Positions 1,351-43,957 of a DNA stretch of 46,497 nucleotides are shown here, piece by piece. The notes beneath the pieces were generated by a model that saw only the letters and a program-made list of their open reading frames with translations, was not told where the DNA came from and made no database searches. Position numbers and translations under genes: made by a program. How positions within the stretch are numbered: the stretch's first letter is position 1; each line of letters starts with the position of its first letter. The stretch comes from a virus: UHGV virus genome UHGV-1364979. One strand, written 5' to 3'.

Positions 1351-2307
1351 TTACAGGTTAAATTGCTTTTTGAACCACTCAGGCGTTTCCATTTCGATGA
1401 CCGGATTACCCATTGAGTAACCGGGCCATGAATTGGCTTTTTTGCATGCCTTATAGATTTCCATCGCGCTGCGCAGTTGAATGCGACCAATGCGTAACTG
1501 TTCATCAGTCAGACGAATCAACGCAGGGATGAATGGAGATTTTTTCTCCTGCACCAGAAGGTTTACCGAGCGAGGCGCATGCCCATAAGCCTCGACAAAC
1601 ATGTCGTGCTGCATTGCCATCTTCATAAAGTACCCGAGCCGCGCAGCATGGCGAAAAAATTCATCAGGCTTGGCGCTCACCGCTGTTTTGTAGTCGATGA
1701 TGTCGCCACCGCGAGTAAGGCAGTCAAAGCGTACTTTTGATGGCTCGCCAAGCAACTTACCGAGAATTGATACCTCGGAATAAGCACCAGAAAGCAGGCT
1801 GCTGTAATAGCTGTTTGCATGGATTACGGCGCGCATCTGCATGATGGCGTCATAATCATTGCCCTCCAGCATTGATTTACCAGTAGAGGCCTTCTCTGCT
1901 TCTTCACGGATAACATCGTAAATCTGCACTGTCTCGCCAGTGGCCTGAATAATTTTAATCACTTCGGCTTTAGTCTTACCTGAAAGCCCTTTAATGCCGC
2001 GCTCTTTCGCCCATGAGTTCATGTCGGAAGCTGTCACCAGCACCGTGCGATTGCCATCTTTGTCTTTTGGGAAATCTTCGACAACTGGCATGCGGGCATA
2101 TTCTGCTTCGAAACGCTCAGGCTCAAGCAGAGCGGTATGGCTACCGGTTCCGAAGACAAGAGCCTTTGATTGCTCATCTTCTTCGTCTTTGTAGCGCCAT
2201 GCAGCTGGGCAGCGGTCATATATGTTCCATAGGCCAGAGCCGTTGATGTGCTCTGTGTCAGCATGATATTCTTGATTGCTTAATTCGTTATTAAAGTAAA
2301 CCTTCAT
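1351..2307 (-). CDS. PD-(D/E)XK superfamily nuclease, putative recombination exonuclease partner of Erf
   Basis: 318 aa. Candidate catalytic core VRFDCLT...GGDIIDYKT matches a D...(D/E)xK arrangement. It sits between erf and VRR-NUC. SD GAGGTG precedes the ATG at 2307. Confidence 0.55.
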   Translation of the reverse strand: MKVYFNNELSNQEYHADTEHINGSGLWNIYDRCPAAWRYKDEEDEQSKALVFGTGSHTALLEPERFEAEYARMPVVEDFPKDKDGNRTVLVTASDMNSWAKERGIKGLSGKTKAEVIKIIQATGETVQIYDVIREEAEKASTGKSMLEGNDYDAIMQMRAVIHANSYYSSLLSGAYSEVSILGKLLGEPSKVRFDCLTRGGDIIDYKTAVSAKPDEFFRHAARLGYFMKMAMQHDMFVEAYGHAPRSVNLLVQEKKSPFIPALIRLTDEQLRIGRIQLRSAMEIYKACKKANSWPGYSMGNPVIEMETPEWFKKQFNL

Positions 2308-2353
2308 CCATCACCTCACTTGTTATTGTCAGATGAATCTACATCAAACCACG

Positions 2354-2770
2354 TCATTCATCAAGCCCAAAATAGAATAACGTCGCTCTTTTTATCTCCT
2401 CAAGACCATAAGCAATAGCGCCAAAGTGACCCTCTGCAATGGCGCACTCAAGAACCTCAATCTGCGATGGCGATACTTTTGATTTTGTCTTGTCACGCCT
2501 CTTCAACTCAATCAGGCCGCATTTATGATTAATGCCGTGAGTTAGTATCACATTGTCGCTTACACCGCTCCTGACGCCCATTTTTCGGCGTTTTTCGATG
2601 AATTGCGGACCACTCTTTGTTCCAGTCTCGTTAGGCACATGAAACCACAGGACTTCAGGGAATCGGTATTGCATCCAAAGACCATAGGCCATCTGGTCAG
2701 TTTCCTCCCTTGGACACTCCCCGCGATAACCGCTATCAAATACCCACATTCCACTATCAAGCTGCTTCAA
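2354..2770 (-). CDS. VRR-NUC domain nuclease
   Basis: 138 aa. GVSDNVILTHG...CGLIELK resembles the VRR-NUC D..ExK core. TTG start at 2770 preceded by AGGAG. Overlaps the helicase stop. Confidence 0.7.
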   Translation of the reverse strand: MKQLDSGMWVFDSGYRGECPREETDQMAYGLWMQYRFPEVLWFHVPNETGTKSGPQFIEKRRKMGVRSGVSDNVILTHGINHKCGLIELKRRDKTKSKVSPSQIEVLECAIAEGHFGAIAYGLEEIKRATLFYFGLDE

Positions 2771-10902: not shown

Positions 10903-11081
10903 TGCCGCAAAAATCAAAGCAGGAGGTGTGGAAGGCTGCGCAGATTGAAGGCGTCGACCACTTCATAGCAGCAATCGCCAAAGCCTTCCCTGATGCGATT
11001 GAGGTGGTTCACGTTAAATCCCCACGCAATGATTTGTGGTGCAGGAGCGGTAAGTGTGATGAAAAGAATAGACTGGAATGA
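10902..11081 (+). CDS. hypothetical 59-aa protein
   Basis: ATG at 10902 with SD GAGGTG 6 nt upstream. Confidence 0.4.
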   Translation: MPQKSKQEVWKAAQIEGVDHFIAAIAKAFPDAIEVVHVKSPRNDLWCRSGKCDEKNRLE

Positions 11082-11544
11082 GCTGTTTGAATACGACAAC
11101 GGAAATCTGATATGGCGGGAGGATACTGGCCGCAAGGCAAGAAAAGGTGAGGTTGCAGGCCACTCAGGGACAAAAGGATATACGTCGATTTGGTGCTATG
11201 GACGAAAATACTTTGCGCATAGAATTATATGGGAAATGCATAATGGCCCTATAACTGGCGGGTTGGAGATTGACCATGTAAACCATAACCCTGGAGATAA
11301 CAGGATTGAAAATCTCAGGCTGACAAATAGGGGAGGGAATCTAAAAAACAAATCTAAGTACTCCAGCAATAGTAGCGGAGTAACTGGCGTACACTGGAGG
11401 AAGGATAAGCGAAAGTGGCAAGCAAAAATAAGGGTTAACAAGAAGTTCATACATCTTGGATATTTCAACGACATACTTGACGCGGAGCTGGCAAGAAAGA
11501 AAGCAGAAGAAGAGTATGGGTTTCACGATAATCATGGTGTATAA
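11059..11544 (+). CDS. HNH endonuclease with C-terminal AP2 domain (homing-endonuclease-like), immediately upstream of terS
   Basis: EIDHVNHNPGDNRIENLRLTNRGGN is the HNH motif. GVTGVHWRKDKRKWQAKIRVNKKFIHLGYFNDILDAELARKKA is an AP2 domain. Start ATG at 11059 (MKRIDW) with an AGGAG SD. Confidence 0.85.
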   Translation: MKRIDWNELFEYDNGNLIWREDTGRKARKGEVAGHSGTKGYTSIWCYGRKYFAHRIIWEMHNGPITGGLEIDHVNHNPGDNRIENLRLTNRGGNLKNKSKYSSNSSGVTGVHWRKDKRKWQAKIRVNKKFIHLGYFNDILDAELARKKAEEEYGFHDNHGV

Positions 11545-15174: not shown

Positions 15175-15192
15175 CACCTACACCATGCTATA

Positions 15193-15219
15193 ATCCCATC
15201 CATGCGATGGGATTTTTTA
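15193..15219 (+). terminator. intrinsic terminator immediately upstream of portal
   Basis: TCCCATC catgc GATGGGA then TTTTTT. An extended -10 TGcTATAAT (15186-15194) overlaps its 5' arm. Confidence 0.7.
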
Positions 15220-19181: not shown

Positions 19182-19193
19182 AATCTACGTCAA
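19182..19193 (-). promoter_or_regulatory. promoter 13-mer TTGACGTAGATTG for the island 19136..17610
   Basis: Exact copy on the minus strand. A rightward extended -10 TGaTAAAAT at 19202-19210 lies 8 nt away and serves the endolysin gene. Confidence 0.6.
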
Positions 19194-19234
19194 TAGGATT
19201 ATGATAAAATAATCTGCATCACCGGAGGTAACAA

Positions 19235-22630: not shown

Positions 22631-23154
22631 GTAACCTGAGCAGGGAAGGAATTTTAAAGTTTCTCAGGTATGATGAAAAAACAGGAAACTTTCTATGGAT
22701 TGATAATTTCTCAAGGAAGTCAAAGCAAGGAATGGTGGCCGGAGGTGTTACATCGCATGGCTATTGGAGAATTCAACTTCCTGTTGGGAGGTTTTATGCT
22801 CACAGAATGGCGTGGATTGTTTGCAATGGCTATATACCAAAGGGATATGAGATTGACCACATAAATGGAAACAAGAAAGATAATCGCATCAGCAACCTGA
22901 GATTAGTCACAAGATGTCAAAATGTTATGAATGTGGGAGTGAAAAACAATAATACAAGCGGAGTTAAGGATGTTGTTTGGGACTCATCGAGAGAAAGGTG
23001 GAGGGTTCAAATCACCGCTAACGGCAAGAATTATTATGGAGGAAGGTTTTCATCAATAACACAAGAAAGGGAAGCGAGGGATAGACTCATAAAAATGGTT
23101 CACGGGAATTTTTTGAATACAAAAGGTGAGCAACATGATACCACTAATGAATAA
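22627..23154 (+). CDS. HNH endonuclease with AP2 domain (homing-endonuclease-like)
   Basis: YEIDHINGNKKDNRISNLRLVTRCQN is the HNH motif. SGVKDVVWDSSRERWRVQITANGKNYYGGRF is the AP2 domain. Confidence 0.85.
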   Translation: MSNLSREGILKFLRYDEKTGNFLWIDNFSRKSKQGMVAGGVTSHGYWRIQLPVGRFYAHRMAWIVCNGYIPKGYEIDHINGNKKDNRISNLRLVTRCQNVMNVGVKNNNTSGVKDVVWDSSRERWRVQITANGKNYYGGRFSSITQEREARDRLIKMVHGNFLNTKGEQHDTTNE

Positions 23155-23371
23155 TGAGAAATTGCTGGGATGCCCGTTTTGCGGTGGCGAAAATTCCATG
23201 CGAAACAAGGATGGGCAATGGCATTTTATAGTATGCCAGGATTGCGGATGCCGTACTGATGATTGGATGAATGCAGCGACAGCAATCATGAAATGGAACA
23301 CCCGCAACGGCCACCTCTATACCGCTGACGACTACAAACAAGATGCACTGGAGCGCGCAAATGGACTTTAA
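23135..23371 (+). CDS. Lar-family restriction alleviation protein-like zinc ribbon (putative anti-restriction)
   Basis: MIPLMNNEKLLGCPFCGG...CQDCGC...MKWNTRN matches the Lar-family pattern (CPFCG ... CxxC ... WN.R) from memory. Start at 23135 with SD AAGGTG. Confidence 0.5.
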   Translation: MIPLMNNEKLLGCPFCGGENSMRNKDGQWHFIVCQDCGCRTDDWMNAATAIMKWNTRNGHLYTADDYKQDALERANGL

Positions 23372-23831
23372 AACGCAAATACTCACGGTGATAGAGCGCT
23401 GCGGCGGCGCAACCAATGCCATGATACGCAAGCAGACCGGAATCACTGACCGAGCACGGATAAATCTCTATCTTCTCGAAATGGAGAGTATGGGGTTTAT
23501 TATTAAAGAGGAAAGCGTCAGCTATGGCAGGCGCTGCTTTAAGTATTTCCTCAATCCCGATAATACTGCGCTTGATCTGGCAATTCAGACGTATCTTGAG
23601 GCGAATCCGGGACGCAAGAGCAAGCAGATAGCGGAGGCTGTCGGCGTCAACTACACCATCCTCAAGGCACGCATGCGCTACCTGGCAAGCATTGGTCAGG
23701 TTGGCCGTGAAATGCTTCCCGGCGGTGCATGGAAATATTACTGGCAGGAAGTCATCCCGTTTGGAATGAGTCGTGACAGGATGATGTTTGAAAAGCTGCT
23801 TGCCGGGGCGCGCCAGTCATGTGGGCGGTAA
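23361..23831 (+). CDS. tandem winged-helix DNA-binding protein (putative transcription regulator)
   Basis: Two wHTH-like halves (ILTVIERCGGATNAMIRKQTGITD... and KSKQIAEAVGVNYTILKARMRYLASIG). Confidence 0.45.
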   Translation: MDFKTQILTVIERCGGATNAMIRKQTGITDRARINLYLLEMESMGFIIKEESVSYGRRCFKYFLNPDNTALDLAIQTYLEANPGRKSKQIAEAVGVNYTILKARMRYLASIGQVGREMLPGGAWKYYWQEVIPFGMSRDRMMFEKLLAGARQSCGR

Positions 23832-24692: not shown

Positions 24693-24874
24693 ATTCTCTT
24701 CCGTGGCTGTTACCTTGCACTCAGGAGGTAGCAGCCATGCCAATCATACTGATATCATTCTTTGCTACTCTTTTCGCTTTTACTGCATCTCCGCTTTACC
24801 TTCTCGCGTCCGTTTCGTGGTGCATATTCATGGTGTGTTATAATCCGGGAATAAAGCAAGCGCGGAGAAAGGTC

Positions 24875-29143: not shown

Positions 29144-29401
29144 TTAGCCTTCATCATTAATGCTATGCAGTTTTCCACCGCAGAATGGGCAGAAGTTCAG
29201 GATTACAGGGCTGCCATTTCCTGACTGGTATGTAATTTTTTGCCCAAGAGATTCTCCAGTTGAAATCAACACAGAATGACCAGCAACCAGACCTTTGGTT
29301 TTTTTGTTGGACACATATTGAAGATATTCAGCCAGGTGCGCGCAGATGTTAGTAGCATAACGCTTCCCTTGGCTTGCGCATGGAATTAATTTATTTGTCA
29401 T
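29144..29401 (-). CDS. zinc-ribbon protein (N-terminal CxxxC...C..H, C-terminal CPFCGG)
   Basis: 85 aa. TGATG overlap with the parB-like gene. Confidence 0.45.
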   Translation of the reverse strand: MTNKLIPCASQGKRYATNICAHLAEYLQYVSNKKTKGLVAGHSVLISTGESLGQKITYQSGNGSPVILNFCPFCGGKLHSINDEG

Positions 29402-30216
29402 CACAGCTTCTCCAGAATCGCCAGCACTTCATTCAACTCCGCAGAAGGAAGGCGCAAAAATTCTTCTGTCTCCTGTGCTACATGGCCCTCAGCAACCACC
29501 ATATGATCTGCTTCTTTCAGCAACTGAATCAGGCGGTCAATCGGCTTAACTTTTTTGGCCTTGAGCGTTTTCGCAGTCACCTTATCCTTGCCCTGCGCTT
29601 TCGCTTCCTCAACAGCAGCATCAATAACGTTAACGGCATCATCGCCATGCTCACGCGCCACCGCAACGGCGTTGGCATAGCTGATTTGGCCTGCATTGAT
29701 GCGTTGCTTGATCGCATCAGGTACATGAACAAGTGACAGGTGCATCTGCACATCAGAAACTGAGCGACCTACTTTTTTGGCGATTTCTTCATTCGTCCAT
29801 CCGAACCCTTTCAGGCGCACATAAGCCTTTGCACGCTCAAGCGGGTCAAGCTGCTTGCCCTGACTGGATGACACCATGAAGGCGATTTTATCCGCTTCAT
29901 CGCCGGTGAAGTCTTTGCACTCAATGCGCACAATTGGCACGCCGCGCTCAATGGCACGCAATGCGCCAAGGTAACGATGCTGACCGTCAAGAATCTTGAT
30001 GCGCTTTCCGTCAGCATCAGGAATAACAGTTAACGCCGGGATTGGCTGGCCTGATTCCCAGCACTGCGCGAAGTATTCAACGTGCTGCTCATCGGCTTCG
30101 CGGATGTTGTATCCCGGTTCAAGATAAAGCTGGTCGACAGGAACCTGATAACCTTTGTTGACCACGATTCCGCCGCGAGTTTCTTTGTCTGAGTAAATTT
30201 TTCCGAGAGATGTCAT
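29401..30216 (-). CDS. ParB/Srx-like nuclease domain protein with C-terminal helical/HTH region
   Basis: ILDGQHRYLGALRAIE matches the ParB N-terminal domain motif. Start MTSLGKIY at 30216 with SD GAGGAAAAA. Confidence 0.65.
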   Translation of the reverse strand: MTSLGKIYSDKETRGGIVVNKGYQVPVDQLYLEPGYNIREADEQHVEYFAQCWESGQPIPALTVIPDADGKRIKILDGQHRYLGALRAIERGVPIVRIECKDFTGDEADKIAFMVSSSQGKQLDPLERAKAYVRLKGFGWTNEEIAKKVGRSVSDVQMHLSLVHVPDAIKQRINAGQISYANAVAVAREHGDDAVNVIDAAVEEAKAQGKDKVTAKTLKAKKVKPIDRLIQLLKEADHMVVAEGHVAQETEEFLRLPSAELNEVLAILEKL

Positions 30217-30667: not shown

Positions 30668-30696
30668 ACTATAGCGACACCCTCAATCTACGTCAA
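30668..30696 (-). promoter_or_regulatory. sigma70-type promoter TTGACGTAGATTGAG-N-TATAGT (same architecture as 8138-8166)
   Basis: -35 at 30696-30691, 17-nt spacer, -10 TATAGT at 30673-30668. A second degenerate copy GATGACGTAGAAAC lies downstream. Confidence 0.7.
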
Positions 30697-30857
30697 CACT
30701 TTATGATAAAATTAAACCAACAACACTCACCCCGAGCTGTTCCGTCCTGAAAAACGTAAGGCGGCGAAATTGGATATAGCAATCGGCGTTATCGTCATAG
30801 CGTTTTCGCTGGTTCAGGTGTACAGATGCTGGAGGTTCATCATTCGGAGAATAATTA

Positions 30858-32778: not shown

Positions 32779-32855
32779 TGGCTCCCGCGACAGGATTCGA
32801 ACCTGTAATCATCCGATTATGAGTCGGGTGCTTTAACCAGTTAAGCTAAACGGGA
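32779..32855 (-). tRNA. tRNA-Met (anticodon CAT; could be Ile2 if lysidinylated)
   Basis: Hand-folded 77-nt cloverleaf: 6/7-bp acceptor stem, D stem GCTT/AAGC, anticodon loop CTCATAA, T arm ACAGG-TTCGAAT-CCTGT, encoded CCA. Two mismatches (7:66 and 27:43). Confidence 0.75.
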
Positions 32856-33686
32856 ATTTGGTGCGCCGCTTCAACCGTGAATCTGGTGCCAGAATAACCT
32901 ATCTAAGATAGTTTATTTAGCATTGCAGTTCAGAGGATATCAGTTCGACGACTTTAGGGTGATCAGCCCATTTCATATGTATTGTTGTGGCCATGGTGCC
33001 TCCATGTTGCTGGTCGGTAAATCCAGCAGGCATAACAATTCACCAGTGTATCTCTACCTTGCCGCGTGCGCATAGCCGCATTACCACAACGATAAGAGCA
33101 CTGCACTTTGCTTCGTACTCCGTGGCAATCAAGTCCACCATGTAAACCTGCAATGCTCTTACCTGTTGTGTGTTGTGACTACTAACCCCGGAACTCATTA
33201 CCGCTCTTTGGCTCGACCTTTTTACAGGTTAGTGAGTGTTTTTCATCCGCTTGCACTCATTTTATTTGTTTTCGTCACAACGGAAATGGCACTTTCATCG
33301 CTGCAACATGACGGTAAATCGGATTCACTGCATCACGTACAAAATGCCATTTCCTGTTGTATGCCCTGACTTATTAATCACATCTCAGGGCCGCAATGCG
33401 CCGAATTCATTGACAAGGAATCGGAAGAACTTGCTGGTGTTTAGCCGTTAGGCTACTGCCAGATACATTTCTTCGTTTGCATTTATCTTTGTGGTCAGTT
33501 TCTAAAAACCCGCAAAGTCGCACCGAAAAATATCGGAAAGAGCACTCATTGCATCGACCAAACAGAATCGTCTTTTCGATTATGACTCTACTTTGACGGT
33601 TGCTCTGCTGCGCTAACCCAATGCCCTTACATGATAGTTGCCGGTTACGCGTCCGGCGTCTTTCGACCGCTAATTCGATCACTTCT

Positions 33687-33863
33687 TCAATTTTGCGTTG
33701 TAATGTCGCTACACCATGACCCTTTATCATGTGCGCCTGCGCATTTTAGCGCTTCGCCGGTATTCATTTTGAGTGATTCAGTTTCAATGTATGATTCACT
33801 CTTGCCTGGACTTACCTCAACGCTAAGGATTACCAGTAGCGACATTATAATTAACTCAACCAA
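33687..33863 (-). CDS. 58-aa hydrophobic N-terminus protein (TTG start after AGGAGG)
   Basis: SD AGGAGG at 33874-33869, 5-nt spacer, TTG at 33863. It lies downstream of the minus promoter at 33917-33889. Confidence 0.3.
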   Translation of the reverse strand: MVELIIMSLLVILSVEVSPGKSESYIETESLKMNTGEALKCAGAHDKGSWCSDITTQN

Positions 33864-33888
33864 GTTAACCTCCTGTGCTGTTGATTTA

Positions 33889-33917
33889 AATCTACACCAC
33901 CAATCAAAACCTGTCAA
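33889..33917 (-). promoter_or_regulatory. promoter TTGACA-N17-TAGATT reading leftward toward the tRNA
   Basis: -35 at 33917-33912 and -10 at 33894-33889. Confidence 0.6.
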
Positions 33918-33928
33918 CATGATATAAT
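33910..33928 (+). promoter_or_regulatory. rightward promoter CCTGTCAAca-TGaTATAAT (extended -10) for the major tail gene
   Basis: Perfect TGnTATAAT at 33920-33928. Same CCTGTCAA element as at 36076. Confidence 0.6.
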
Positions 33929-33962
33929 GCGATTGTTTGGCTAAACACAGAGGATTCTAAAC

Positions 33963-34718
33963 ATGGCTATTTGTGCAAATGATAACGGCATCATCACAGG
34001 TCGCCAGTCGCTCATTGAGCTGGCTGATGGCTGCTGGGATGCTGTGCCAGCAGAGGAAGACTGGAAGTTTTTTGCTCCCATGACCTCAAAAGGCGTCGAC
34101 TTCAGCCCAAGCACCACCACCTCAGAGGCTGATGATGGCGATGGCTTTGTCGCCACGCTGGTCACTACCGCAGACCTCACCATTTCCGGTGATTTTGAAG
34201 TTCGTAAGGCTGACAAGGCTGATGAGTATGGCGTGCATAACCTCATTAAATACTTTGTCACCGAAGTCAAGGCGCGTCGCCAGCCTTCGCTGTGGGTTCG
34301 CCAGACCACTGGCAACACCGTTGTGGTGGCTTACTGCAACATCACCGCTCTGAGCTACGATGGCGGCACCAACGACATCATCACCGGCTCAGTTGAACTC
34401 AAGCCATATGATGGCTCTACCGTTGACGTGTCCAGCATCGAAGATTTGACGCTGACCACTGATATCAGTGCAATCAAAAGCGTTGCCACTGGCGACACTC
34501 TGACGCTCGGTCCGGTAGTTGCGGCTGGCGGTGTCGAGCCTTATACCTACCAATGGTATAAAGGCACTTCGCCGATAAGCGATGCTACTACCGACACGCT
34601 CACCAAGGCCACTGCTGCCGCAGGTGATGCTGGTACGTACTTCTGCCGCGTGATGGACTCGGCAACCAGTCCTGATTACGTTGACTCTACTAAGTGTGTC
34701 GTCACCGTGACCTCATAA
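33963..34718 (+). CDS. major tail protein with C-terminal Ig-like domain
   Basis: 251 aa with a strong promoter and terminator. The C-terminal 90 aa are Ig-like (YTYQWYKG...YFCRV). Confidence 0.75.
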   Translation: MAICANDNGIITGRQSLIELADGCWDAVPAEEDWKFFAPMTSKGVDFSPSTTTSEADDGDGFVATLVTTADLTISGDFEVRKADKADEYGVHNLIKYFVTEVKARRQPSLWVRQTTGNTVVVAYCNITALSYDGGTNDIITGSVELKPYDGSTVDVSSIEDLTLTTDISAIKSVATGDTLTLGPVVAAGGVEPYTYQWYKGTSPISDATTDTLTKATAAAGDAGTYFCRVMDSATSPDYVDSTKCVVTVTS

Positions 34719-34720
34719 AG

Positions 34721-34748
34721 AAAACCCCCGAAAGGGGGTTTATTTTTT
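34721..34748. terminator. strong bidirectional terminator
   Basis: AAAACCCCC gaaa GGGGGTTT then TTTTTT. Confidence 0.85.
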
Positions 34749-34925
34749 CAGCAATGAAGATACGCGGATTCTCCACAATGACAAGTTAGCGAGCGATACT
34801 GCTAACTCCATGTGAATCAATCTAAGTTTTTCAATATCAACAAAGACCGGGGCGTTGTATTGTTGATTGCTTCTTATGTACTTTGAAATAGTATCAGCAT
34901 CATTATTATCAAGAGTCATCATCAT
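34740..34925 (-). CDS. hypothetical protein
   Basis: 61-aa ORF. Confidence 0.4.
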   Translation of the reverse strand: MMMTLDNNDADTISKYIRSNQQYNAPVFVDIEKLRLIHMELAVSLANLSLWRIRVSSLLKK

Positions 34926-35214
34926 TCTCCTCTCTGATTGCAGTATCCAGTTGTCGACGCAACATACACAGCGCTCCGTGTGGCATAAACTGTGAAACCA
35001 TTCCGTCGAATATCTTCCGGTTTAATTTATTATCAATTCTCGGCCTGATTGCAGACCAGCATGACCTGATTGCGTGATTTACAGGCCTGCGGTCCAGCAT
35101 TGCGAGTCGTGCAGCTAACTCAATGGTAACGAGCGCGTCAAGATACTGCTCGCATGAGTAGCGTGATTCGTCATCCTCTTCCGTGGTTTTTATGGTAGTT
35201 AAGTTTTCTTTCAT
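34909..35214 (-). CDS. hypothetical protein
   Basis: 101-aa ORF. Confidence 0.45.
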   Translation of the reverse strand: MKENLTTIKTTEEDDESRYSCEQYLDALVTIELAARLAMLDRRPVNHAIRSCWSAIRPRIDNKLNRKIFDGMVSQFMPHGALCMLRRQLDTAIREENDDDS

Positions 35215-35683
35215 ATATCAATCTCGCCTTAACGGCATCGTCAAAGTTTACGTAGTAACCTATTGTTTTCTTTTTGCCATCAATTGATATTGAAGACTTC
35301 CATTTCCCAAACCTATTAATAAAACAAACGCCACTAACGCCGCTAGTATTGTTTTTTTGCCTTGGCCTGTTTTTCATATTCTCAGGCATTGACACATTTC
35401 TTAGATTTTCTATCCTATTATTAGTCCCATCACCATCAATATGGTCGATGTAATCAGGCCAATAACCATAATTCATAAACCATATTACCCTATGAGATTT
35501 GTAAACCTTGCCATCTATCCTTATGTTAATGTAAGACGTCTGATGATCTTTGCTTTTTGACTCCCAACCAGCTTTGCTACCTTTGACCTTCCTGGCGTAT
35601 CTATCAACATTCCATACGAGATAACCATCATTATGGTATGTGAACAGTTCATTAAGCCTATCAAGCGATACGTCTGTTAACAT
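35171..35683 (-). CDS. HNH endonuclease with AP2 domain (homing-endonuclease-like)
   Basis: IDHIDGDGTNNRIENLRNVS is the HNH motif. SGVSGVCFINRFGKWKSSISIDGKKKTIGYYVNFDDAVKARL is the AP2 domain. Start MLTDVS with SD GGAGTG. Confidence 0.85.
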   Translation of the reverse strand: MLTDVSLDRLNELFTYHNDGYLVWNVDRYARKVKGSKAGWESKSKDHQTSYINIRIDGKVYKSHRVIWFMNYGYWPDYIDHIDGDGTNNRIENLRNVSMPENMKNRPRQKNNTSGVSGVCFINRFGKWKSSISIDGKKKTIGYYVNFDDAVKARLIYERKLNYHKNHGRG

Positions 35684-35775
35684 TGAACACTCCATACACC
35701 ATCGAATACTATGTAACATATGACACTTGGCGCGGGTTTATCTGTCATCTATTTTTCTTCTCATCAAGCATCACC

Positions 35776-35892
35776 CTAATGCACCGCCATGTCAGTATAC
35801 GGAAGTCTTGATATGCAGTCGTAGTTGACCACAATTTCTGCAACACGTAAATTAATCTCAAAATCACTTATCTTGCTGTAATCAGTGCTCAT
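35776..35892 (-). CDS. 38-aa peptide
   Basis: ATGA-coupled ORF. Not in the ORF track. Confidence 0.25.
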   Translation of the reverse strand: MSTDYSKISDFEINLRVAEIVVNYDCISRLPYTDMAVH

Positions 35893-36023
35893 CTCTTATC
35901 CTCCACCACTACGCCAATCTTAGCCAGCAACAAAATAGCCTTTACGCGCGCCTCTTCATAGGTGTAACCCTGATCGATGTAAAGGTCGATGTAAAATCTC
36001 AAATCAGCATCAGTCTCGTTCAT
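35889..36023 (-). CDS. 44-aa peptide (MNETDADLRFYIDLYIDQGYTYEEARVKAILLLAKIGVVVEDKR)
   Basis: First ORF after the promoter, with SD TGAGGG. Confidence 0.3.
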   Translation of the reverse strand: MNETDADLRFYIDLYIDQGYTYEEARVKAILLLAKIGVVVEDKR

Positions 36024-36053
36024 ATGTCAAACCCTCAATCACCTTATGCTTTC

Positions 36054-36083
36054 AATCTACGTCAGTCTTGCGCCCCCTGTCAA
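36054..36083 (-). promoter_or_regulatory. promoter TTGACA-N18-TAGATT (13-mer variant CTGACGTAGATTG)
   Basis: -35 at 36083-36078 and -10 at 36059-36054. Confidence 0.55.
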
Positions 36084-36092
36084 TGGTATAAT
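36076..36092 (+). promoter_or_regulatory. rightward promoter CCTGTCAA-TGgTATAAT (extended -10) for the chaperone and tape measure genes
   Basis: Perfect TGnTATAAT at 36084-36092. Confidence 0.6.
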
Positions 36093-36120: not shown

Positions 36121-36828
36121 ATGAGACAACGCACACCGCTAACAGAAATCGGAGAGATGCGCATCTCCCTGGCTGACAAGTCTTTTTTCTTCAAACCATC
36201 ATTTGCGGCGATGAACGAGCTTGGCTCACCGAAAGAGATTGTCGAGCTGTACGCTACGCTTAATGGCTATGAATACGCGGCCATACTCGGCGCCATTCAG
36301 TCAATGCCGTATGGCGCGCAGATTCAGGTGGCAAAAATCCTTTCACGCCCTGCCTATGGTAAGAAAGTTCTCAGCGCCGCCTGCCTCATCATGCAGTCCT
36401 GTTGTGATGATGATATTTCGGTGCTCATTGGGTCATGGAAGCCAACTCCGCGCGGTGTGAAGTACGTCACCGGAAGAATGCCAGTAAATGACATTATTAT
36501 TATTGCCCGCAACCTGATGGAGCATGGCATCATTGGCAAGTCTCCGCTCAAGGTTCCTCAGCGCTCGGAAAACCAAAAGCGCACAACCAGTGAACTGAGA
36601 ATGTCGGATTACATCATCTCAGCTCGCACCCATTTCGGAATCACCCGTGAGGAAGCTGAAGACCTGACCATGACCGAGTATCAGCAAATGATAAAATCAA
36701 AATACCCGGAACCGGAAGGCATGACGCGCGAGCAGTATGATGCGTCTTATGAACGGGCTAAGCTGAATAAACAGAAACTGAAAGAGAAAGCCGCCAGAAA
36801 GGCCGCTAAAAGCAAAGGAGCAAAATAA
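36121..36828 (+). CDS. tail assembly chaperone (putative), Lys-rich C-terminus
   Basis: 235 aa immediately upstream of, and TAATG-coupled to, the tape measure gene. Confidence 0.45.
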   Translation: MRQRTPLTEIGEMRISLADKSFFFKPSFAAMNELGSPKEIVELYATLNGYEYAAILGAIQSMPYGAQIQVAKILSRPAYGKKVLSAACLIMQSCCDDDISVLIGSWKPTPRGVKYVTGRMPVNDIIIIARNLMEHGIIGKSPLKVPQRSENQKRTTSELRMSDYIISARTHFGITREEAEDLTMTEYQQMIKSKYPEPEGMTREQYDASYERAKLNKQKLKEKAARKAAKSKGAK

Positions 36829-39800
36829 TGGCAGAAGAAGTTGGCGGCATTGTCTATGAGGTTGGCATTGATACATCTCAGTTAGCGGCTGGCAGTCGTG
36901 AAATAGAGTCAATGCTAAATGACCTTAGTGGGAATATGGGGCGGCTCGAGGCCAGCGTAAACAGGACTGAGCGTTCTATAAGCTCAATGGAAGGAACCAT
37001 GTCCAGCCTCACCGGGGTTGCAAAAGGATTGCTTGCTGCTTTGTCAGTGCAGCAGGTTGGCGCCTACGCTCAGGCGTGGCAGGATATGAGTAACAAACTC
37101 TCTAACGCTGTGAGAGATTCAGTTCCGCCGTTCGAAACCCTTGCCGATGTAACTAATCGTGTTTTTGATATCGCGCAAAAAACACGCTCAGGACTGGACG
37201 CAACGGCCACCCTGTACGCCAGACTTGAGAGGTCTACCAGAAGCTATGGTGTAAGCGTGGAAGACCTGACAAGGCTGACAACAATAATCAATCAGGGTTT
37301 TGTTGTATCCGGCGCGTCAGCTGAGGAGGCGAGTAACGCAATTATCCAGCTTGCACAAGGCATGGCATCTGGCGCCCTTCGAGGAGATGAGTTCAACTCA
37401 GTAAACGAGCAGGGCAACCGGCTCATGATAGCTCTTGCCGACTCTCTGGGTGTTGGCATCGGTGAGCTTAGAAATATGGCCGCCCAAGGCAAATTGACAA
37501 CGGATGTCATAGTCAATGGCCTCCTGTCGCAGGGAGATAGTATTGGGAGAGAGTTCGCCAAAACAACTTCTACCATCAGCCAGTCTCTGGAGATAGCCGG
37601 AAATAACGTTGCAAGATTCTTTGGGGAAAACGCAACGGTAAAAACAGGCGTAAAAATATTTAGCGATTCAGTGATACTGGCAAGTGAAAACATTCAGGCC
37701 CTCGGTACAGCGCTAACCATTGTAGCTGGCGTAATGGGGAGCCGTTATGTTGGCGCTCTGGCAATGTCCACTGCAGCTAAAATATCAGATATAGCCGCAT
37801 CAAGACAGCAATTGATCGCCGAGAATCAGCAGGCACAATCAGCACTTGTGGCTGCAAATTCCGCGCAGAGGAAGGCTTTAGCTGATAAAGAGGCGGCGCT
37901 ATCATCTCTGGCGCTTGCTCAGGCTGAATATAACGTAGCAAAAGGCAGTGCAGCCGAGATGCTGGCGCTTGATGCTCTGGTTGCAGCAAAATCAAGAGCT
38001 AGTGCCGCGTCACTATCCCTTGCTCAGGCTGAAAACGCACAGGCTACGGCATCAGCGAGAGCAGCATCCGCGGCAAGCGCTGCATCGGTAGGAATTGGCC
38101 TTGCCAGAGGTGCTCTTTCATTGATAGGCGGGCCAGCAGGCGCGGCGATGTTAGCAGCGGGGGCAATATTTTACTTTTGGCAGAAAGCACAGCAAGCCAG
38201 AGAAGAAGCAATCCGCTTTGCCGATAGTCTGGACGAAGTAAACGCCTCAATGAAGGCGATGAATAATACCCAACTCAGGGGGGCGATAGCTGACGCCAAT
38301 ATTTCAATTTCGGCGCAAAAGGATGCTGTGAGAAATCTGCAAAGTGAAGTTGATGCACTTCGTGAGAGGTATCTTAGCTTCACTCCTGCCGCGCAAGAGG
38401 TGGCTGAGTCACTTGGTCAAGGGTCGCAATTTGCTTCTGATCAGGAAAGGGTGCTCAATGAATTAAATAAAAAATCAAGAGATTTAGCTGATGCTCAGGA
38501 TAAACTAGCAAGAACTCAGGACACGGCAGCAGAAGCAAGCAGAACCCTAACAAACAACATGCTTACCTCAATGGGGGTACATGATGGCCTGATTGAGAAA
38601 GGCTCGACTCTTGAGAGAGTGCAGGGGGCGGTGGCAAGAGCATTTGGATTGACTGCCGATGAGATAAACCGAGCAAATCAGGCAGGCCAAAACTTCAACC
38701 CAAAATCCTTGCAAGTGTCGCCCCCAACAGAAGAAGCTGACAAGATAATCCTCAATCTTGAGGAGCAAAACCAACTTTTAAAAATACAGAATGAAAGACA
38801 AAGGGCAGTAACAAAGGCGAGAATGGAGGCAGCTAAGGTAACTGATAACCCCAATCAGATAGCCAGAGCTGGTGAGCTTGCAGGGCAGATACATGATTTA
38901 AATGAGGCTGAGAAAGCAAGAGAAAAAGCGCAAAATGATTCTCAGTCAGCGGCCAACAAGGCAGCCACAGAGCAGGAGAATATCGCCAACAAACTTGAGC
39001 AACTGCGGCAAGAATCATTGCTAACAGCAGATAGCACAAGAGAGCTAAGTCGAGAGCAAGCAATACTACAGGCACAACAATCATTAGGAAAAGGCGCTAC
39101 AGAGGAGCAAATAAGGCTCGCTGGAGAGTACAAGGCTAAGGCATGGGATAATGCCAACGCGATAAAGGCTCAGGCAGAGGCGGAGAAGAAAAGAGTTGAA
39201 GCCGTCAAGGGATTCGCTGCATTAAAATCGCAGACATCCCCAATGTTTGCCGTTGAAACAAATTACCAGAAGGATTTAGCAGCGCTCAATGCTTATGCGG
39301 TGGCTTACCCGCAAAAGATAGCGGAGGTTGAGCAGGCCAGAGCAGCAATTGAGGAACAATACCGCCAGCAGCGCCTTGATGCCATGTGGCAGGAGTGGAG
39401 TCAGCAGAATGCGGCTACGCAAGCAGCTGCTGCTGCATTTGATGCTTTTGGGCAAACCGCAAGCAACGCACTGACTGGTATTTTGACTGGCTCAATGTCT
39501 GTAAGTGATGCCTTGCGGTCAATTGGCAGCACTGTGTTGAACGCTGTCATTAACTCATTCGTTCAGATGGGTGCTGAGTGGCTTAAATCGGTGATTATGG
39601 GTCAGGTTGGGATGACCGCAGCCTCAGCGATGGCAGCGACTCAGGCCAAGCTAATCGCAGCGGCAATGGCCCCGGCAGCGGCAATGACCTCGCTTGCCAC
39701 GGCTGGCGCTAACGCAATCCCTGCACAGGCTGGCATTGTTTCCACCATTGGTGTGGCTAAAGCAATGTCTGTTGCCGGTGCATTAAAGAATGGCGGCCCT

Positions 39801-40121
39801 GCGCAGGCTGGATCAATGTATCAGGTCGGCGAGAACAACCTCCCTGAAATCTTCCAGGCCAGTAATGGTAATCAGTACATGATACCCGGGGACAACGGAA
39901 AGGTTATCAGCAACAAAGACCTTACCGGAGGTGGTAGTGGTATTGTGATTTATAATAGCGTCACAAACTACAGCAGCGGAGCAACAACAACTACCAGTGC
40001 CAGAGACAATGGAGATGGGTCTGTTACAATTGAGACGATTGTGGCAGATATCGAGAGTGGCGGGCCCATTTCTCAGGCTATTACCAGCAACACCACTGCA
40101 ACCAGAAGGGCAACAGAATAA
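36828..40121 (+). CDS. tail tape measure protein
   Basis: 1097 aa, Ala/Gln-rich coiled coils, and the expected position. Confidence 0.9.
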   Translation: MAEEVGGIVYEVGIDTSQLAAGSREIESMLNDLSGNMGRLEASVNRTERSISSMEGTMSSLTGVAKGLLAALSVQQVGAYAQAWQDMSNKLSNAVRDSVPPFETLADVTNRVFDIAQKTRSGLDATATLYARLERSTRSYGVSVEDLTRLTTIINQGFVVSGASAEEASNAIIQLAQGMASGALRGDEFNSVNEQGNRLMIALADSLGVGIGELRNMAAQGKLTTDVIVNGLLSQGDSIGREFAKTTSTISQSLEIAGNNVARFFGENATVKTGVKIFSDSVILASENIQALGTALTIVAGVMGSRYVGALAMSTAAKISDIAASRQQLIAENQQAQSALVAANSAQRKALADKEAALSSLALAQAEYNVAKGSAAEMLALDALVAAKSRASAASLSLAQAENAQATASARAASAASAASVGIGLARGALSLIGGPAGAAMLAAGAIFYFWQKAQQAREEAIRFADSLDEVNASMKAMNNTQLRGAIADANISISAQKDAVRNLQSEVDALRERYLSFTPAAQEVAESLGQGSQFASDQERVLNELNKKSRDLADAQDKLARTQDTAAEASRTLTNNMLTSMGVHDGLIEKGSTLERVQGAVARAFGLTADEINRANQAGQNFNPKSLQVSPPTEEADKIILNLEEQNQLLKIQNERQRAVTKARMEAAKVTDNPNQIARAGELAGQIHDLNEAEKAREKAQNDSQSAANKAATEQENIANKLEQLRQESLLTADSTRELSREQAILQAQQSLGKGATEEQIRLAGEYKAKAWDNANAIKAQAEAEKKRVEAVKGFAALKSQTSPMFAVETNYQKDLAALNAYAVAYPQKIAEVEQARAAIEEQYRQQRLDAMWQEWSQQNAATQAAAAAFDAFGQTASNALTGILTGSMSVSDALRSIGSTVLNAVINSFVQMGAEWLKSVIMGQVGMTAASAMAATQAKLIAAAMAPAAAMTSLATAGANAIPAQAGIVSTIGVAKAMSVAGALKNGGPAQAGSMYQVGENNLPEIFQASNGNQYMIPGDNGKVISNKDLTGGGSGIVIYNSVTNYSSGATTTTSARDNGDGSVTIETIVADIESGGPISQAITSNTTATRRATE

Positions 40122-41482: not shown

Positions 41483-43919
41483 TGTTCCTGCTGGCACTAA
41501 TCTGTGGAGATGGCTGGAGAATTCCAGCCTTCCATCTGATATCAGGATTGCACTGAATGGCCGCATTTTTGGCCCTGATGATGAATTGTCGATATCGTTA
41601 AAGCAAAACGATATTGTTAACATTTACTGCCAGCCTCGCGGCGCCATTGGCGACCTTATCAGCACGATACTCAAGCCTGTAACGAAGGTGCTTTCTTTTC
41701 TGTTGCCAAAAGCATCAACGCCGTCAATCAACTCAGAAACATCAAAGTCATCGCCAAACAACTCACTCAAAGCGCAGACAAACACGGCAAGAAATGGTGA
41801 GGCCAGACCTGATAATTTTGGGCAAGTCAGGAGTTATCCAGACCTGATTCAAGAGTCACTTTTTGAATACATAAATAACATAAAATATGTTACAGAAATA
41901 ATGAACTTCGGTCTTGGGAAGTACACCGTATCATCAGTCAGGTATTCAGAGTCAAACCTTGGCTCGCTTGCTGGTGCATCATATACAATATATAACCCTG
42001 GAGAAATTATACCTGTAATATATGAGCCTTATGCTTTTGATGATGTTGATGGTCAGGAATTATACGGACCAAATGAGTTGAGTGTTGATCCTCCTCCAGT
42101 GCAAATTGAGACAGCCACCACGACAACGGTAAGTGATTCCGACTTTGCATCCGGCGAGCTGCTCATAAAAATACCAAAAAATAGTGATTTCGACTATTTT
42201 GTAGACCTTACCATGCCGCATGCTATTGTTTTTGAACTAAACATAACCTACCCAACTCCTGGGGGTAGCACAACAGCGGATGTTACATTATCTGGAAACC
42301 TGACATTCGCAGAAGAAAAAAATGATGGATTAATCCCTCCTGTGGATTACTGGTACGAATTTACAATAAACTCAATAAATTATGGCGGAGCGCCAATCTC
42401 ATCCCTTGATGGAGTGACAATAAATAATACGTTATTTTCATTAACTGACAATCAGCCGCTGGTATCTGGCCCATATTTCTCTCCAATAGAGGGCGGCGAG
42501 CTTTGGGTGCATTTCATAGCACAGCTTGGAGATAAAGACTACGCAAATGTGAAGATTGAGTGGTGGAAAGTCGATGATAATAACGAACAAATACCCGGAA
42601 CAAAGGAGGAGCATTTTTTTGAAACTGGCGCAGCACCAAGGACAGACAATTACTTTTACACAATAAAATTAACCCCATCAGCTGGATTCGGGAGATATGC
42701 AATACAGTTTTCAAGAACCAACAACAGCAATGACCACTCAATCATTCAGGTTGACGAGGTCCATACAATAATAAAGAGGGAAAACGTATCCTATCATGAT
42801 GACACAATTGTTAAGGTAGTTGTTAGAGCGACAGAAAACGCCACCGGTAGCAGAGAAAGAAAGTATAACGCGCTAATCACCCGCTGGACTATCGGATATA
42901 ACAGAACAACCGGGACAGTCGACTATACGTTAACTCCATCAAGAAGTTTTGCAGATTCAGTGCTGCATAACTGGCTTATTACTGCTGGTCAGCCTGAAAG
43001 CACCATTGACGTTGGAAGGCTCTATGAAATAGCTGATGCGCTGCCTGATGAGCGCCTTGGGTATTTTGATTACACATTTGACGATGAGGATAAATCGATC
43101 GGCGAGCGAATTCAGACCATCTGTGATGCAGCTCGCGTAACTGTATTTTGGGATGATGGCGTCCTATCTTTCTCAAGAGATGAGCAAAAATCAACCCCTG
43201 AAACTGTGTTTAATACCAGAAACACACAGGCTGATGGCTATAAAATGTCTTATGACATGACTTTGCCTGGTTCATATGATGGCGTAAGCGTTCAGTACCG
43301 CGACCCAAACACCAACAAACAGGCTTACGTTTATTATAAAGTTGGGGCATCTGGTATCGAGCCGGGAGAGCCGACTAAGCCGAAAAAATTCGACATGTTA
43401 TATGTTCGGAACCTGTATCAGGCAACAGACCGGGCCATGCTTGAATGCAATCGCCTGATGTACTCACGTCGCGGCATGGAGATAAAGGCGCTTGCTGATG
43501 GCGAGTGGGTGAACGTCGGCGATATGATTTCCGTTGTCGACATTTATGATTCAGTGCAGCAGACTGGCGTTATCCGTTCAAGGTCTGGAAACGTATTTAC
43601 CACCAGTGAACAGCTCACGGCAGAAAGCGGTCTGTTTGTGGTCATCACCGGCGCCAATGGGAATGTTTCAGAACGCCTGGCTTGTACCGTTACCGGACTG
43701 AATACATTCGAGTGCGCATTGCCATCTGATTTCGAGTTAAACATTTTTGATGGTGTTAATGTTCAGTCAGAATCAAGATATGCCATCTCCACAGAGGTTG
43801 AGCTTGATTCAACGTTATGGACAGTTAGCCAAAAAACTCCAGGTACAGATGGCACAGTGTCTCTCACCGTAACTGAGTACAATGACGCCATGTACGCCTA
43901 CACCAACCCTGTTGCATGA
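41430..43919 (+). CDS. tail tip / host-specificity protein: gpI-like N-terminal domain fused to a J-like tip protein
   Basis: 829 aa. The N-terminal 90 aa are lambda gpI-like (beta-grasp). The remainder is a Thr/Ser-rich beta protein in the tip position. Confidence 0.5.
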
Positions 43920-43957
43920 TACAATAGGGTAATTAATGATTACGGAGATTGCAGCAG

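Follow-up and report, generated by a model that had tools for sequence, protein, structure and literature searches.

The virus genome UHGV-1364979, a DNA of 46,497 nucleotides (nt) that is referred to here as the window, contains two short intergenic regions in which a leftward and a rightward promoter are predicted to lie back to back. Module 1 is located upstream of the gene for the major tail protein, and module 2 upstream of the genes in the positions of the tail chaperone and the tape measure protein. By megablast and tblastn, the window was placed among the Klebsiella siphophages of about 46-48 kilobases (kb) around Roufvirus, namely pIS4-A, MK54, BUCT610, GP-1, and Tbat1_6. The sister group consists of Salmonella and E. 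coli phages of the Skatevirus / Vi II-E1-like type (e.g., Bas78 and HC8A), with chaperone-position proteins about 65-69% identical between the two groups. In annotated relatives the same layout was identified, with leftward blocks of small accessory genes breaking the rightward structural and lysis blocks at least six times. As judged from sequence and conservation, the two modules quite probably represent compact, overlapping pairs of divergent host sigma-70 promoters, positioned at the right border of moron-like leftward cassettes. The putative core elements and the genes downstream of them are the following, where ORF stands for open reading frame and aa for amino acids:

33889-33894, minus strand: leftward -10 of module 1, TAGATT (sequence and consensus scan)
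33912-33917, minus strand: leftward -35 of module 1, TTGACA, with a 17-nt spacer (sequence and consensus scan)
33920-33928, plus strand: rightward extended -10 of module 1, TGATATAAT, 34 nt short of the major tail protein ATG
36054-36059, minus strand: leftward -10 of module 2, TAGATT (sequence and consensus scan)
36078-36083, minus strand: leftward -35 of module 2, TTGACA, with an 18-nt spacer (sequence and consensus scan)
36084-36092, plus strand: rightward extended -10 of module 2, TGGTATAAT, 28 nt short of the ATG at 36121
33963-34718, plus strand: major tail protein gene with an Ig-like C-terminus (phrog_853 at 4e-91, Pfam Ig_2)
36121-36828, plus strand: DUF6246 gene in tail chaperone position, the first gene of the distal tail block
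36828-40121, plus strand: ORF of 1097 aa in tape measure position (label from the annotation of related records)

Sequence of the Two Modules

On the plus strand, both modules can be read directly as AATCTAC-N14/15-CCTGTCAA-(0/2 nt)-TGnTATAAT, with the letters AATCTACACCACCAATCAAAACCTGTCAACATGATATAAT for module 1 (33889-33928) and AATCTACGTCAGTCTTGCGCCCCCTGTCAATGGTATAAT for module 2 (36054-36092). Read leftward, the left elements form the putative promoters TTGACA-17-TAGATT (33917->33889) and TTGACA-18-TAGATT (36083->36054), each of which matches the sigma-70 consensus at 10 of 12 positions. The -35 hexamer is a complete match to TTGACA in both modules (6/6), and TAGATT agrees with the -10 consensus at four of six positions, with A2 and T6 kept. 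Read rightward, TG is positioned one base before a perfect TATAAT in both TGATATAAT and TGGTATAAT. This element is separated from the leftward -35 by 2 nt in module 1, which contains an additional CA ahead of the TG, and by 0 nt in module 2.

Direct reading and the consensus scan confirmed the back-to-back arrangement that the first-pass annotation had reported at both sites, and the downstream genes named there (33963-34718 for the major tail protein, 36121-36828 in chaperone position, and 36828-40121 in tape measure position) were found again at these places. The modules had also been described as identical; this holds for their 23 promoter bases (7+8+8), whereas the 14/15-nt spacers are unrelated to each other. 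The motif TGNTATAAT occurs in just four copies in the window, all on the plus strand. For the composite TGTCAA-N0-8-TGNTANAAT, two copies were counted against 0.04 expected, and none of 100 shuffles reached two. The significance of the modules lies in this juxtaposition and in the conservation described below, since a 10/12 consensus match alone is at chance level.

Conservation of the Leftward Promoter

Conservation was scored in the 100 nt that precede each of two genes, the one for the major tail protein and the one in chaperone position. The set of close relatives comprised 38 IMG/VR loci and two GenBank loci, with major tail proteins of 92-98% identity, and elements were counted in 41 sequences for module 1 and in 40 for module 2. 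For module 1, AATCTA was identical in 41/41 sequences and TGTCAA in 40/41; for module 2, AATCTA, TGTCAA, and the rightward -10 were all identical in 40/40. The spacer of the leftward promoter is of almost constant length in both modules, but its sequence occurs in 14 variants in module 1 (variable columns, 11 of 17) and in 18 variants in module 2 (variable columns, 11 of 18; hexamers versus spacer in Fisher tests, p=0.003 and p=0.0006, respectively). Invariant hexamers around a free spacer of fixed length carry the signature that would be expected of a working -35/-10 promoter. A mutated -35 was seen only in locus L023, where TTGACA has become CTGACA.

The distance between TGTCAA and AATCTA is constant at 17±1 nt, while that between TGTCAA and the TG ranges from 0 to 11 nt across lineages and junctions; therefore, the two left elements appear to function as a pair of their own rather than in combination with the rightward -10. 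On the left side of AATCTA, close relatives alternate among at least five unrelated flanks, so that the promoter belongs to the conserved backbone, and it is the cargo that is swapped. The genes aligned with the leftward promoters have ORF starts at 36023 and about 33863, each preceded by a Shine-Dalgarno sequence. At the leftward site of module 2, a computational "host promoter" annotation is present in the PP454752 / GP-1 record.

Rightward Extended -10 Promoters

The rightward element of module 1, TGATATAAT, is unchanged in 41/41 sequences, as is TGGTATAAT of module 2 in all 40. In the Skatevirus-like group, the element of module 1 is retained as TG(T)GATATAAT, and the counterpart of TGGTATAAT is TGATATAAT. 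The case for the rightward -10 is made by this retention in the sister genus and by a genome-wide class of such elements, not by conservation in close relatives. For the rightward promoters of the modules, the best -35 match is 2/6 at a spacing of 16-18 nt, in a region which is the variable spacer of the leftward promoter. A MotA-box-like activator box near -30 of the rightward promoters was considered and rejected, the region being that same variable spacer.

All seven rightward structural and lysis blocks open with TGnTAnAAT, with a best -35 match of 1-3 of 6: portal (15186), lysis (19202), capsid (24836), connector (30704), tail tube (33920), distal tail (36084), and tailspike (43917). The same extended -10 set is carried by Bas78. 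Apart from modules 1 and 2, the putative members in the window are as follows:

15186-15194, plus strand: extended -10 TGCTATAAT before the portal gene, of the same class, unpaired with a leftward promoter
19188-19210, both strands: third back-to-back module at the lysis-block junction, CGTCAA (leftward -35 TTGACG), 8 nt, and TGATAAAAT
24836-24844, plus strand: extended -10 TGTTATAAT before the capsid gene block, of the same class
30691-30712, both strands: fourth back-to-back module at the connector-block junction, CGTCAA, 7 nt, and TGATAAAAT
43917-43925, plus strand: extended -10-like TGATACAAT before the tailspike gene, of the same class

Junctions of the form CGTCAA-N7/8-TGATAAAAT have an expected count of 0 in the window. 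The lysis-junction module has an orthologue in Bas78, and the connector-junction module, with the leftward promoter TTGACG-17-TATAGT, was identified in 38/40 relatives and in Bas78. Modules 1 and 2 are not special in this respect, being two of at least four such junctions in the genome.

Three further observations were made at these promoters. The plus strand at 43887-43925, CCTACACCAACCCTGTTGCATGATACAAT, resembles a degenerate module copy (compare TCTACACCACC...CCTGTCAACATGATATAAT) and lies inside the end of the gene preceding the tailspike gene. At the portal promoter TGCTATAAT (15186-15214, plus strand), a terminator-like hairpin and a T run follow directly, CCCATCcatgcGATGGG-TTTTTT; the corresponding site of Bas78 (L151 4352-4385) reads CCCTCcatcgtGAGGG, with compensatory changes that preserve the stem. 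This site looks like an overlapping terminator-promoter insulator, and transcripts from the portal promoter would lack the 5' arm of the hairpin. Finally, a palindrome, GTTTGGCTAAAC, is present at 33935-33946 (plus strand) in the messenger RNA of the major tail protein, with the form GTTTAGCTAAAC in 40 relatives and GTTAGCAGCTAAC in the Skatevirus-like group. In both groups it starts exactly 7 nt past the -10, at the predicted +1. A role of this palindrome, GTTT(A/G)GCTAAAC, as a KorB/ParB operator was rejected on account of its single genome copy, and a role as a 5' RNA hairpin because the Roufvirus form is too weak for prediction.

Modules in More Distant Phages

The sister-group set consisted of 34 Skatevirus-like loci together with ViII-E1, Bas78, and HC8A. 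In the Skatevirus-like group, the arrangement upstream of the chaperone-position gene is AATCTA-N17-TGTCAA-N11-TGATATAAT, and upstream of the tail protein gene AATCTA-N17-TGTCAA-N6-TGATATAAT, within 5' untranslated regions (5'UTRs) that are unlike those of the Roufvirus-like phages. Among phages at 34-46% identity, CobraSix included, the two tail genes are about 58 nt apart and no island is present between them; CobraSix is the only distant phage whose intergenic DNA was read, and neither promoter was found there. Both promoters thus appear to be conserved wherever an island exists; in ViII-E1-type loci, the rightward promoter is kept and the leftward -35 is missing. The first-pass annotation would have taken a second element not conserved in relatives, together with activity in only one direction in vivo, as speaking against its reading; in the orthologous intergenic regions compared here, both elements are kept. 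With invariant leftward hexamers around a variable spacer, and a rightward TGnTATAAT kept in a sister genus with diverged 5'UTRs, both promoters of each module look functional.

In two Skatevirus-like loci, the variants upstream of the chaperone-position gene start with TTCAATTTTCATAC and combine a Roufvirus-type left half with a Skatevirus-type right half, joined exactly at TGTCAA|TGATATAAT. Such hybrid modules indicate that the two genera have recombined within the module. A mobile promoter module was also considered. In a scan of IMG/VR, the composite pattern was confined to Roufvirus-like contigs (26-51 kb, most of them 45-50 kb), and this idea was therefore rejected.

Islands Served by the Leftward Promoters

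The leftward cassettes are referred to here as island 1, next to module 1, and island 2, next to module 2. In the feature lists, tRNA stands for transfer RNA and tmRNA for transfer-messenger RNA. For island 2, the features were obtained from the ORF list and from searches with PHROGs and Pfam:

34722-34741, both strands: bidirectional intrinsic terminator at the left border of island 2, with an 8-bp (base pair) stem and T runs on both strands
34740-36023, minus strand: island 2, a five-ORF leftward cassette of low GC content
35889-36023, minus strand: ORF of 44 aa, phrog_17424, beside the promoter in 33/40 relatives
35745-35867, minus strand: ORF of 40 aa
35171-35683, minus strand: HNH endonuclease
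34909-35214, minus strand: DUF7740 protein
34740-34925, minus strand: ORF of 61 aa

For island 1, the elements are given from promoter-proximal to distal:

32779-33882, minus strand: island 1, the leftward unit of module 1
33687-33863, minus strand: ORF of 58 aa, on a 355-nt insertion
33547-33535, minus strand: lone 3' arm of a hairpin
about 33534-33364, minus strand: tmRNA-like domain, with a tag frame at 33480-33448
33362-33276 and 33170-33085, minus strand: long hairpins
32779-32855, minus strand: tRNA-Met, the last element (ARAGORN; the only Rfam match at threshold in the window)

The GC content of the islands is 0.34-0.46, versus 0.50-0.55 in the tail genes. Among relatives, island 2 is 772-1499 nt and island 1 is 172-1319 nt long, and the cargo of island 2 can consist instead of methyltransferases, HNH endonucleases, and "superinfection immunity" or DUF2591 genes. 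The terminator at 34722-34741 is annotated as such in the GP-1 record and delimits, together with the promoter of module 1, the major tail protein gene as a monocistronic unit. Intrinsic terminators were identified at the left border of five leftward islands (13546-13528, 17607-17586, 20392-20372, 28963-28946, and 34741-34722), and none was predicted at the left end of island 1. Thus, with respect to the moron-type combination of an own promoter and an own terminator, island 2 has both (36083-36054 and 34741-34722), and island 1 has the promoter only. Three paralogous HNH genes are present in different accessory blocks, at 11059-11544 (plus), 22807-23154 (plus), and 35171-35683 (minus), all with phrog_99 as the best match, which fits a homing-type spread of cassettes.

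In seven relatives, a minimal island 1 of 252 nt was identified, which contains tRNA-Arg and then tRNA-Met; a distance of 18 nt separates the leftward -10 and the 5' end of tRNA-Arg. These tRNA-only islands mark the leftward promoter of module 1 as a tRNA promoter in the classic layout. The smallest tRNA content of island 1 is one hybrid remnant, and the largest is a set of four tRNAs (Met, Arg, Thr, Ser), as sampled at L023/L024 3829-3925, L037 2773-3102, and L021 3024-3274. The remnant in L023/L024 is an apparent deletion joining tRNA-Met and tRNA-Arg, and gives no ARAGORN call. An ORF of 107 aa at 33407-33730 (minus strand) was considered as cargo of island 1. Since it lacks a family match, runs into the conserved RNA domain, and in relatives is cut short by the promoter, it is probably not a gene.

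A Putative tmRNA-Like RNA in Island 1

In most relatives, the predicted leftward transcript of module 1 has about 375 nt of conserved non-coding sequence at its start, ahead of the tRNAs. The copy in the window (about 33547-33085, minus strand) has been pushed away from the promoter by the insertion with the 58-aa ORF; other copies were located at L003 3545-3919 (minus), L099 about 2000-2395 (minus), and L250 3501-3672. The first 175 nt or so are 85% identical between the two phage groups. The tag frame at 33480-33448 reads ...AUAAAU|GCA AAC GAA GAA AUG UAU CUG GCA GUA GCC UAA, which corresponds to ANEEMYLAVA. In 42/42 distinct nucleotide variants, this frame has exactly 10 codons and a stop, and the overlapping AUG frame has 5-16 codons. 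Besides ANEEMYLAVA, 15 peptide variants were identified, such as ANDDVVLMAA and ANDEQFLAVA, with the consensus A-N-[DE]-[DE]-x-[FVYML]-L-[AMI]-[AV]-A. The SsrA tag of E. coli is ANDENYALAA, and the 10-codon frame appears to mirror it, with the similarity to E. coli ssrA confined to the tag region.

Next to the domain, on its downstream side, lie long hairpins with the general sequence CACAAC-A-GG-U-AAGAGCAUUG...CAGUGCUCUU-U-CC-GUUGUG, with hypervariable tips of 31-87 nt. In 23 distinct pairs of hairpin arms, 95.2% of the cells can pair, and seven pairs show double changes. This level was reached in 0/500 shuffles, and slid controls gave 34-65%. G·U pairs account for 38/437 cells, so the structure is specific to the transcribed strand. 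The repeated hairpins CACAACAGGUAAGAGCAUUG...CAGUGCUCUUUCCGUUGUG, which are found likewise in relatives, show compensatory changes and contain a conserved U·G pair, and a few hairpin tips carry T-arm-like motifs, including the tmRNA-type loop UUCAACU in L184. The hairpins could represent processing sites of the RNase III type, degenerate tRNA-like domains, or cassette borders.

The element is widespread. A 22-mer of the domain matches at least 119 IMG/VR contigs. By blastn, the element was identified in 365 E. coli genomes and in 743 phage records (Vi01-like, Felix-O1-like, N4-like, P1, SSU5, and others), at sites which are almost always unannotated. In E. coli 55989, it is located between the Q antiterminator and holin genes of a lambdoid prophage. 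Neither the window nor the 12 motif-scan loci gave an ARAGORN call for tmRNA, and no T-arm or complete tRNA-like domain was found in the window copy. A real T-arm-like motif is present just upstream in only a minority of hairpin 3'-arm contexts; in T5-like and Vi01-like contigs, a T-arm and a CCA-like end are present. The best Rfam tmRNA score was 29.7 bits versus a threshold of 47 (tmRNA_permuted, E=0.0096, in L212), and the window element reached sub-threshold E-values of 0.08-0.4 with the Rfam tmRNA families. Such sub-threshold matches fall on the tag region and, in a T5-like contig, also on the 3' acceptor end. For these reasons the element was not filed as a tmRNA, and is described as a putative tmRNA-like or tmRNA-derived RNA.

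In surveys, phage ssrA genes have been listed only for mycobacteriophages, for Bacillus phage G, and by ARAGORN for about 2% of phage genomes (PMC4131195; PMC9004378). A limited literature search found nothing on the element described here, which may have been described before. In a Vi01-like contig (L197 1118-1331, minus strand), the tmRNA-like element and the tRNA cluster flank an Rfam match to STnc100 (48.7 bits; gathering score, 47), which suggests that several small RNAs travel with phage tRNA clusters. Judged from its conserved content, island 1 appears to have been ancestrally an RNA operon of tRNAs and the tmRNA-like element, served by the leftward promoter of module 1.

A Repeated 13-mer at the Promoters

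The heptamer GTAGATT is enriched in the window, with 15 copies versus 3.95 expected, 12 of them on the minus strand. A 13-mer that occurs at the promoters, TGACGTAGATTGA, has five exact copies (4712-, 8139+, 19180-, 30683-, and 36052-) and further copies with up to two mismatches at 2334, 2344, 4736, 13932, 13949, 14291, 14308, and 22072; for GACGTAGA, eight copies were counted versus 0.59 expected. The copy that touches the modules is the following:

36052-36064, minus strand: exact 13-mer TGACGTAGATTGA over the leftward -10 of module 2 (motif count)

All copies of the 13-mer are located within promoter regions, where they often form pairs at distances of 17, 24, or 30 nt, and are kept at the orthologous sites in Tbat1_6, GP-1, and Bas78. 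In module 2, the 13-mer overlaps with the leftward -10; at the lysis and connector junctions, it overlaps with the leftward -35, and module 1 holds only a copy with three mismatches. It could be an operator or define a promoter family. Its repetition may also just mirror related promoters, because it contains -35-like and -10-like hexamers, and two copies 17 nt apart automatically make a -35 and -10 pair. As DNA-binding proteins, a MarR-like protein (23361-23831) and a ParB-like protein (29401-30216) are encoded in the window. The protein family scan covered 30 window proteins with PHROGs, 10 of them also with Pfam, and among these no anti-sigma or AsiA/gp39-like protein was recognised.

Proposed Mechanism and Alternative Explanations

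In the proposed mechanism, the rightward tail genes of a Roufvirus-like Klebsiella siphophage are interrupted by the cassettes. With its TTGACA, 17/18-nt spacer, and TAGATT, the leftward promoter belongs to the ordinary -35/-10 class and would transcribe the cassette: for island 1, an RNA operon of one or more tRNAs and the tmRNA-like RNA, with a small inserted ORF in the window, and for island 2, the 44-aa ORF, the HNH endonuclease, the DUF7740 protein, and others. The -35-independent extended -10 promoter (TGnTATAAT) would restart rightward transcription of the next structural block, which is the major tail protein gene for module 1 and the chaperone, tape measure, and tail tip genes for module 2. 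At module 2, the restart would be needed because the bidirectional terminator shuts the cassette on its left. The overall design would thus be [terminator]-[leftward cargo]-[leftward promoter | rightward restart promoter].

With transcription starts predicted 7 nt after each -10, the opposite starts would lie at about 33882 (minus) and 33935 (plus), 53 bp apart, in module 1, and at about 36047 (minus) and 36099 (plus), 52 bp apart, in module 2; at other junctions and in other lineages, the predicted distance is 57-63 bp. RNA polymerase has a footprint of about -55 to +20, so that only one polymerase would be accommodated per module, and mutual exclusion of polymerases is plausible. The first-pass annotation had proposed a built-in switch between island and tail-gene transcription. 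The geometry makes such a switch plausible and the data do not require it; what would be expected is promoter competition, rather than a proven regulated switch. It has also been described that back-to-back promoters can couple via supercoiling (PMC4469952).

Several points weigh against this picture of paired and coupled promoters. Matches of 10/12 to the sigma-70 consensus are no commoner in the window than by chance (30 sites versus 28 expected), and the same applies to four-of-six matches to the -10 consensus such as TAGATT. Among the close relatives, statistics do not distinguish the invariance of TGnTATAAT from the good conservation of the 5'UTR (p=0.3 and 0.16). L023 and L024 retain the leftward promoter though only a tRNA remnant remains for it to transcribe. 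Since no terminator is predicted for island 1, read-through could also supply transcripts of the major tail protein gene. The gap between the opposing promoters is 0, 2, 6, 7, 8, or 11 nt, depending on junction and lineage, and three ViII-E1-type loci contain TGTGATATAAT without the leftward -35; tight coupling is therefore not under visible selection. A literature search for promoters or transcriptomes of Roufvirus, Skatevirus, or Vi II-E1 found nothing.

Beyond simple competition, a wider role of the pairs can be considered. Module 1 may be an RNA-operon promoter whose first product is a tmRNA-like RNA, the pair arbitrating between RNAs for translation takeover and tail proteins; together with the split into -35-dependent and extended -10 promoters and the 13-mer, this would amount to a global temporal switch. 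This extension is tentative, and is possible rather than probable.

A regulated early-to-late switch at the modules themselves is rather unlikely, and would involve a phage factor by which the leftward, -35-dependent promoters are closed, so that the extended -10 promoters overlapping with them become available. The factor could act on sigma region 4 or on the beta-flap as a blocker, in the manner of T4 AsiA or P23-45 gp39, or could be a repressor acting on the 13-mer TGACGTAGATTGA over the leftward -35 or -10. The clean two-class design (leftward/early TTGAC(A/G) versus extended -10 promoters without a -35 at seven structural blocks), the repetition of the 13-mer in promoter regions with its conservation in Tbat1_6, GP-1, and Bas78, and the MarR-like and ParB-like proteins agree with such a switch. 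Precedents are P23-45 gp39 (PMC3950348) and indirect activation through repression of an overlapping promoter (PMC3167631). However, no anti-sigma, AsiA-, or gp39-like protein was recognised in the scanned protein subset, the 13-mer is degenerate in module 1 and its repetition may reflect related promoters only, the gap of 0-11 nt is not conserved, and the promoters are uncoupled in ViII-E1-type phages.

That the conserved blocks serve primarily as recombination linkers or boundaries for cassette exchange, with promoter activity secondary, is improbable, though such a role would be compatible with the promoter-pair explanation. Homology to relatives stops exactly at the AATCTA edge, the two hybrid loci are joined exactly at TGTCAA|TGATATAAT, and the island contents are mosaic with HNH endonucleases as frequent cargo. 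A linker would not give conserved hexamers with a free spacer of fixed length, nor so precise a sigma-70 match.

It is very unlikely that only the leftward promoter is real, with TGnTATAAT a UP-like A/T-rich element or a 5'UTR hitch-hiker and the tail genes read from upstream. Relative to the leftward promoter, the motif occupies positions of about -38 to -46, and its conservation in close relatives is, as stated, that of the 5'UTR. Its class, however, fronts every structural block, including those without an adjacent leftward promoter, its distance to the leftward -35 ranges from 0 to 11 nt, it persists in the ViII-E1-type loci that lack this -35, and the terminator at 34722-34741 separates the chaperone gene from upstream promoters.

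Least credible of all is that only the rightward promoter is real and that AATCTAC and CCTGTCAA are activator sites for late tail transcription: extended -10 promoters without a -35 are often activator-dependent, and in both modules the elements lie at about -46/-40 and -25/-16 of the predicted rightward start, positions at which activators can act, but on the opposite strand they read as a perfect TTGACA and a TAGATT with the canonical spacing of 17/18 nt, shift by up to 11 nt against the rightward -10 between lineages at fixed mutual spacing, have leftward genes or tRNAs beginning 11-24 nt past the predicted leftward start, and are missing from the portal and capsid extended -10 promoters.

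Implications for Phage Transcription and Engineering

Read as promoter pairs, the modules are part of a testable transcription map for a phage group that includes Klebsiella therapy candidates. In this map, the structural genes would be organized in about seven short units, each transcribed from an extended -10 promoter without a -35 and interleaved with antiparallel cassettes. The canonical cassette promoter would overlap the restart promoter, and in this layout cargo could be swapped inside the tail-gene cluster without breaking late expression. The modules would thereby mark safe insertion points and provide ready-made bidirectional promoter parts for phage engineering. If the competition is regulated, they would represent a compact timing device operating on the host polymerase alone. 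The widespread unannotated tmRNA-like RNA could outweigh the promoters in importance, as it bears on the way in which phages handle ribosome rescue.

Comparison with Known Systems

In E. coli, overlapping divergent promoters at which a polymerase bound at one represses the opposite one are common and well studied, and about 14% of the promoters overlap an opposite one (PMC3167631). The phage modules resemble the back-to-back sigma-70 pairs of E. coli, like aroP P1/P3 or synthetic pairs (Bendtsen et al. 2011, PMC3167631), in having opposite promoters within about 50-60 bp. In contrast to these, the phage pairs always combine a canonical -35/-10 promoter with an extended -10 promoter lacking a -35, and within a single 46-kb genome there are at least four such arrangements, each located at the border of a cassette.

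Morons have been described as independent promoter-gene-terminator units set between late genes (PMC3594210). Like morons, the phage cassettes are low in GC, variably present, and located inside a structural cluster, with a promoter of their own and, for island 2, a terminator. They differ in being antiparallel to the late genes and in having a conserved restart promoter for the late genes downstream. Furthermore, the host genome is that of a virulent-type siphophage and not a lambdoid prophage, and island 1 contains RNA genes and no predicted terminator.

In T4, the promoters resistant to AsiA are of the extended -10 (TGn) type. For the Thermus phage P23-45, middle and late extended -10 promoters functioning with gp39 have been described (PMC3950348). 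As in P23-45, the structural genes of the window lie behind promoters of the TGnTATAAT type without a -35, and other genes behind -35-dependent ones. Unlike in P23-45 and T4, a gp39- or AsiA-like factor was not recognised among the scanned window proteins, and the parallel is a working analogy only.

The lambda promoters PR and PRM have starts about 82 bp apart and share no core elements, and they are governed by the CI/Cro operators. They are likewise back-to-back divergent phage promoters, which in lambda control alternative programmes; in the modules described here, unlike in lambda, the core elements interdigitate. In this comparison, the overlapping divergent promoters at moron-type cassettes are a conserved arrangement of a well-known sort.

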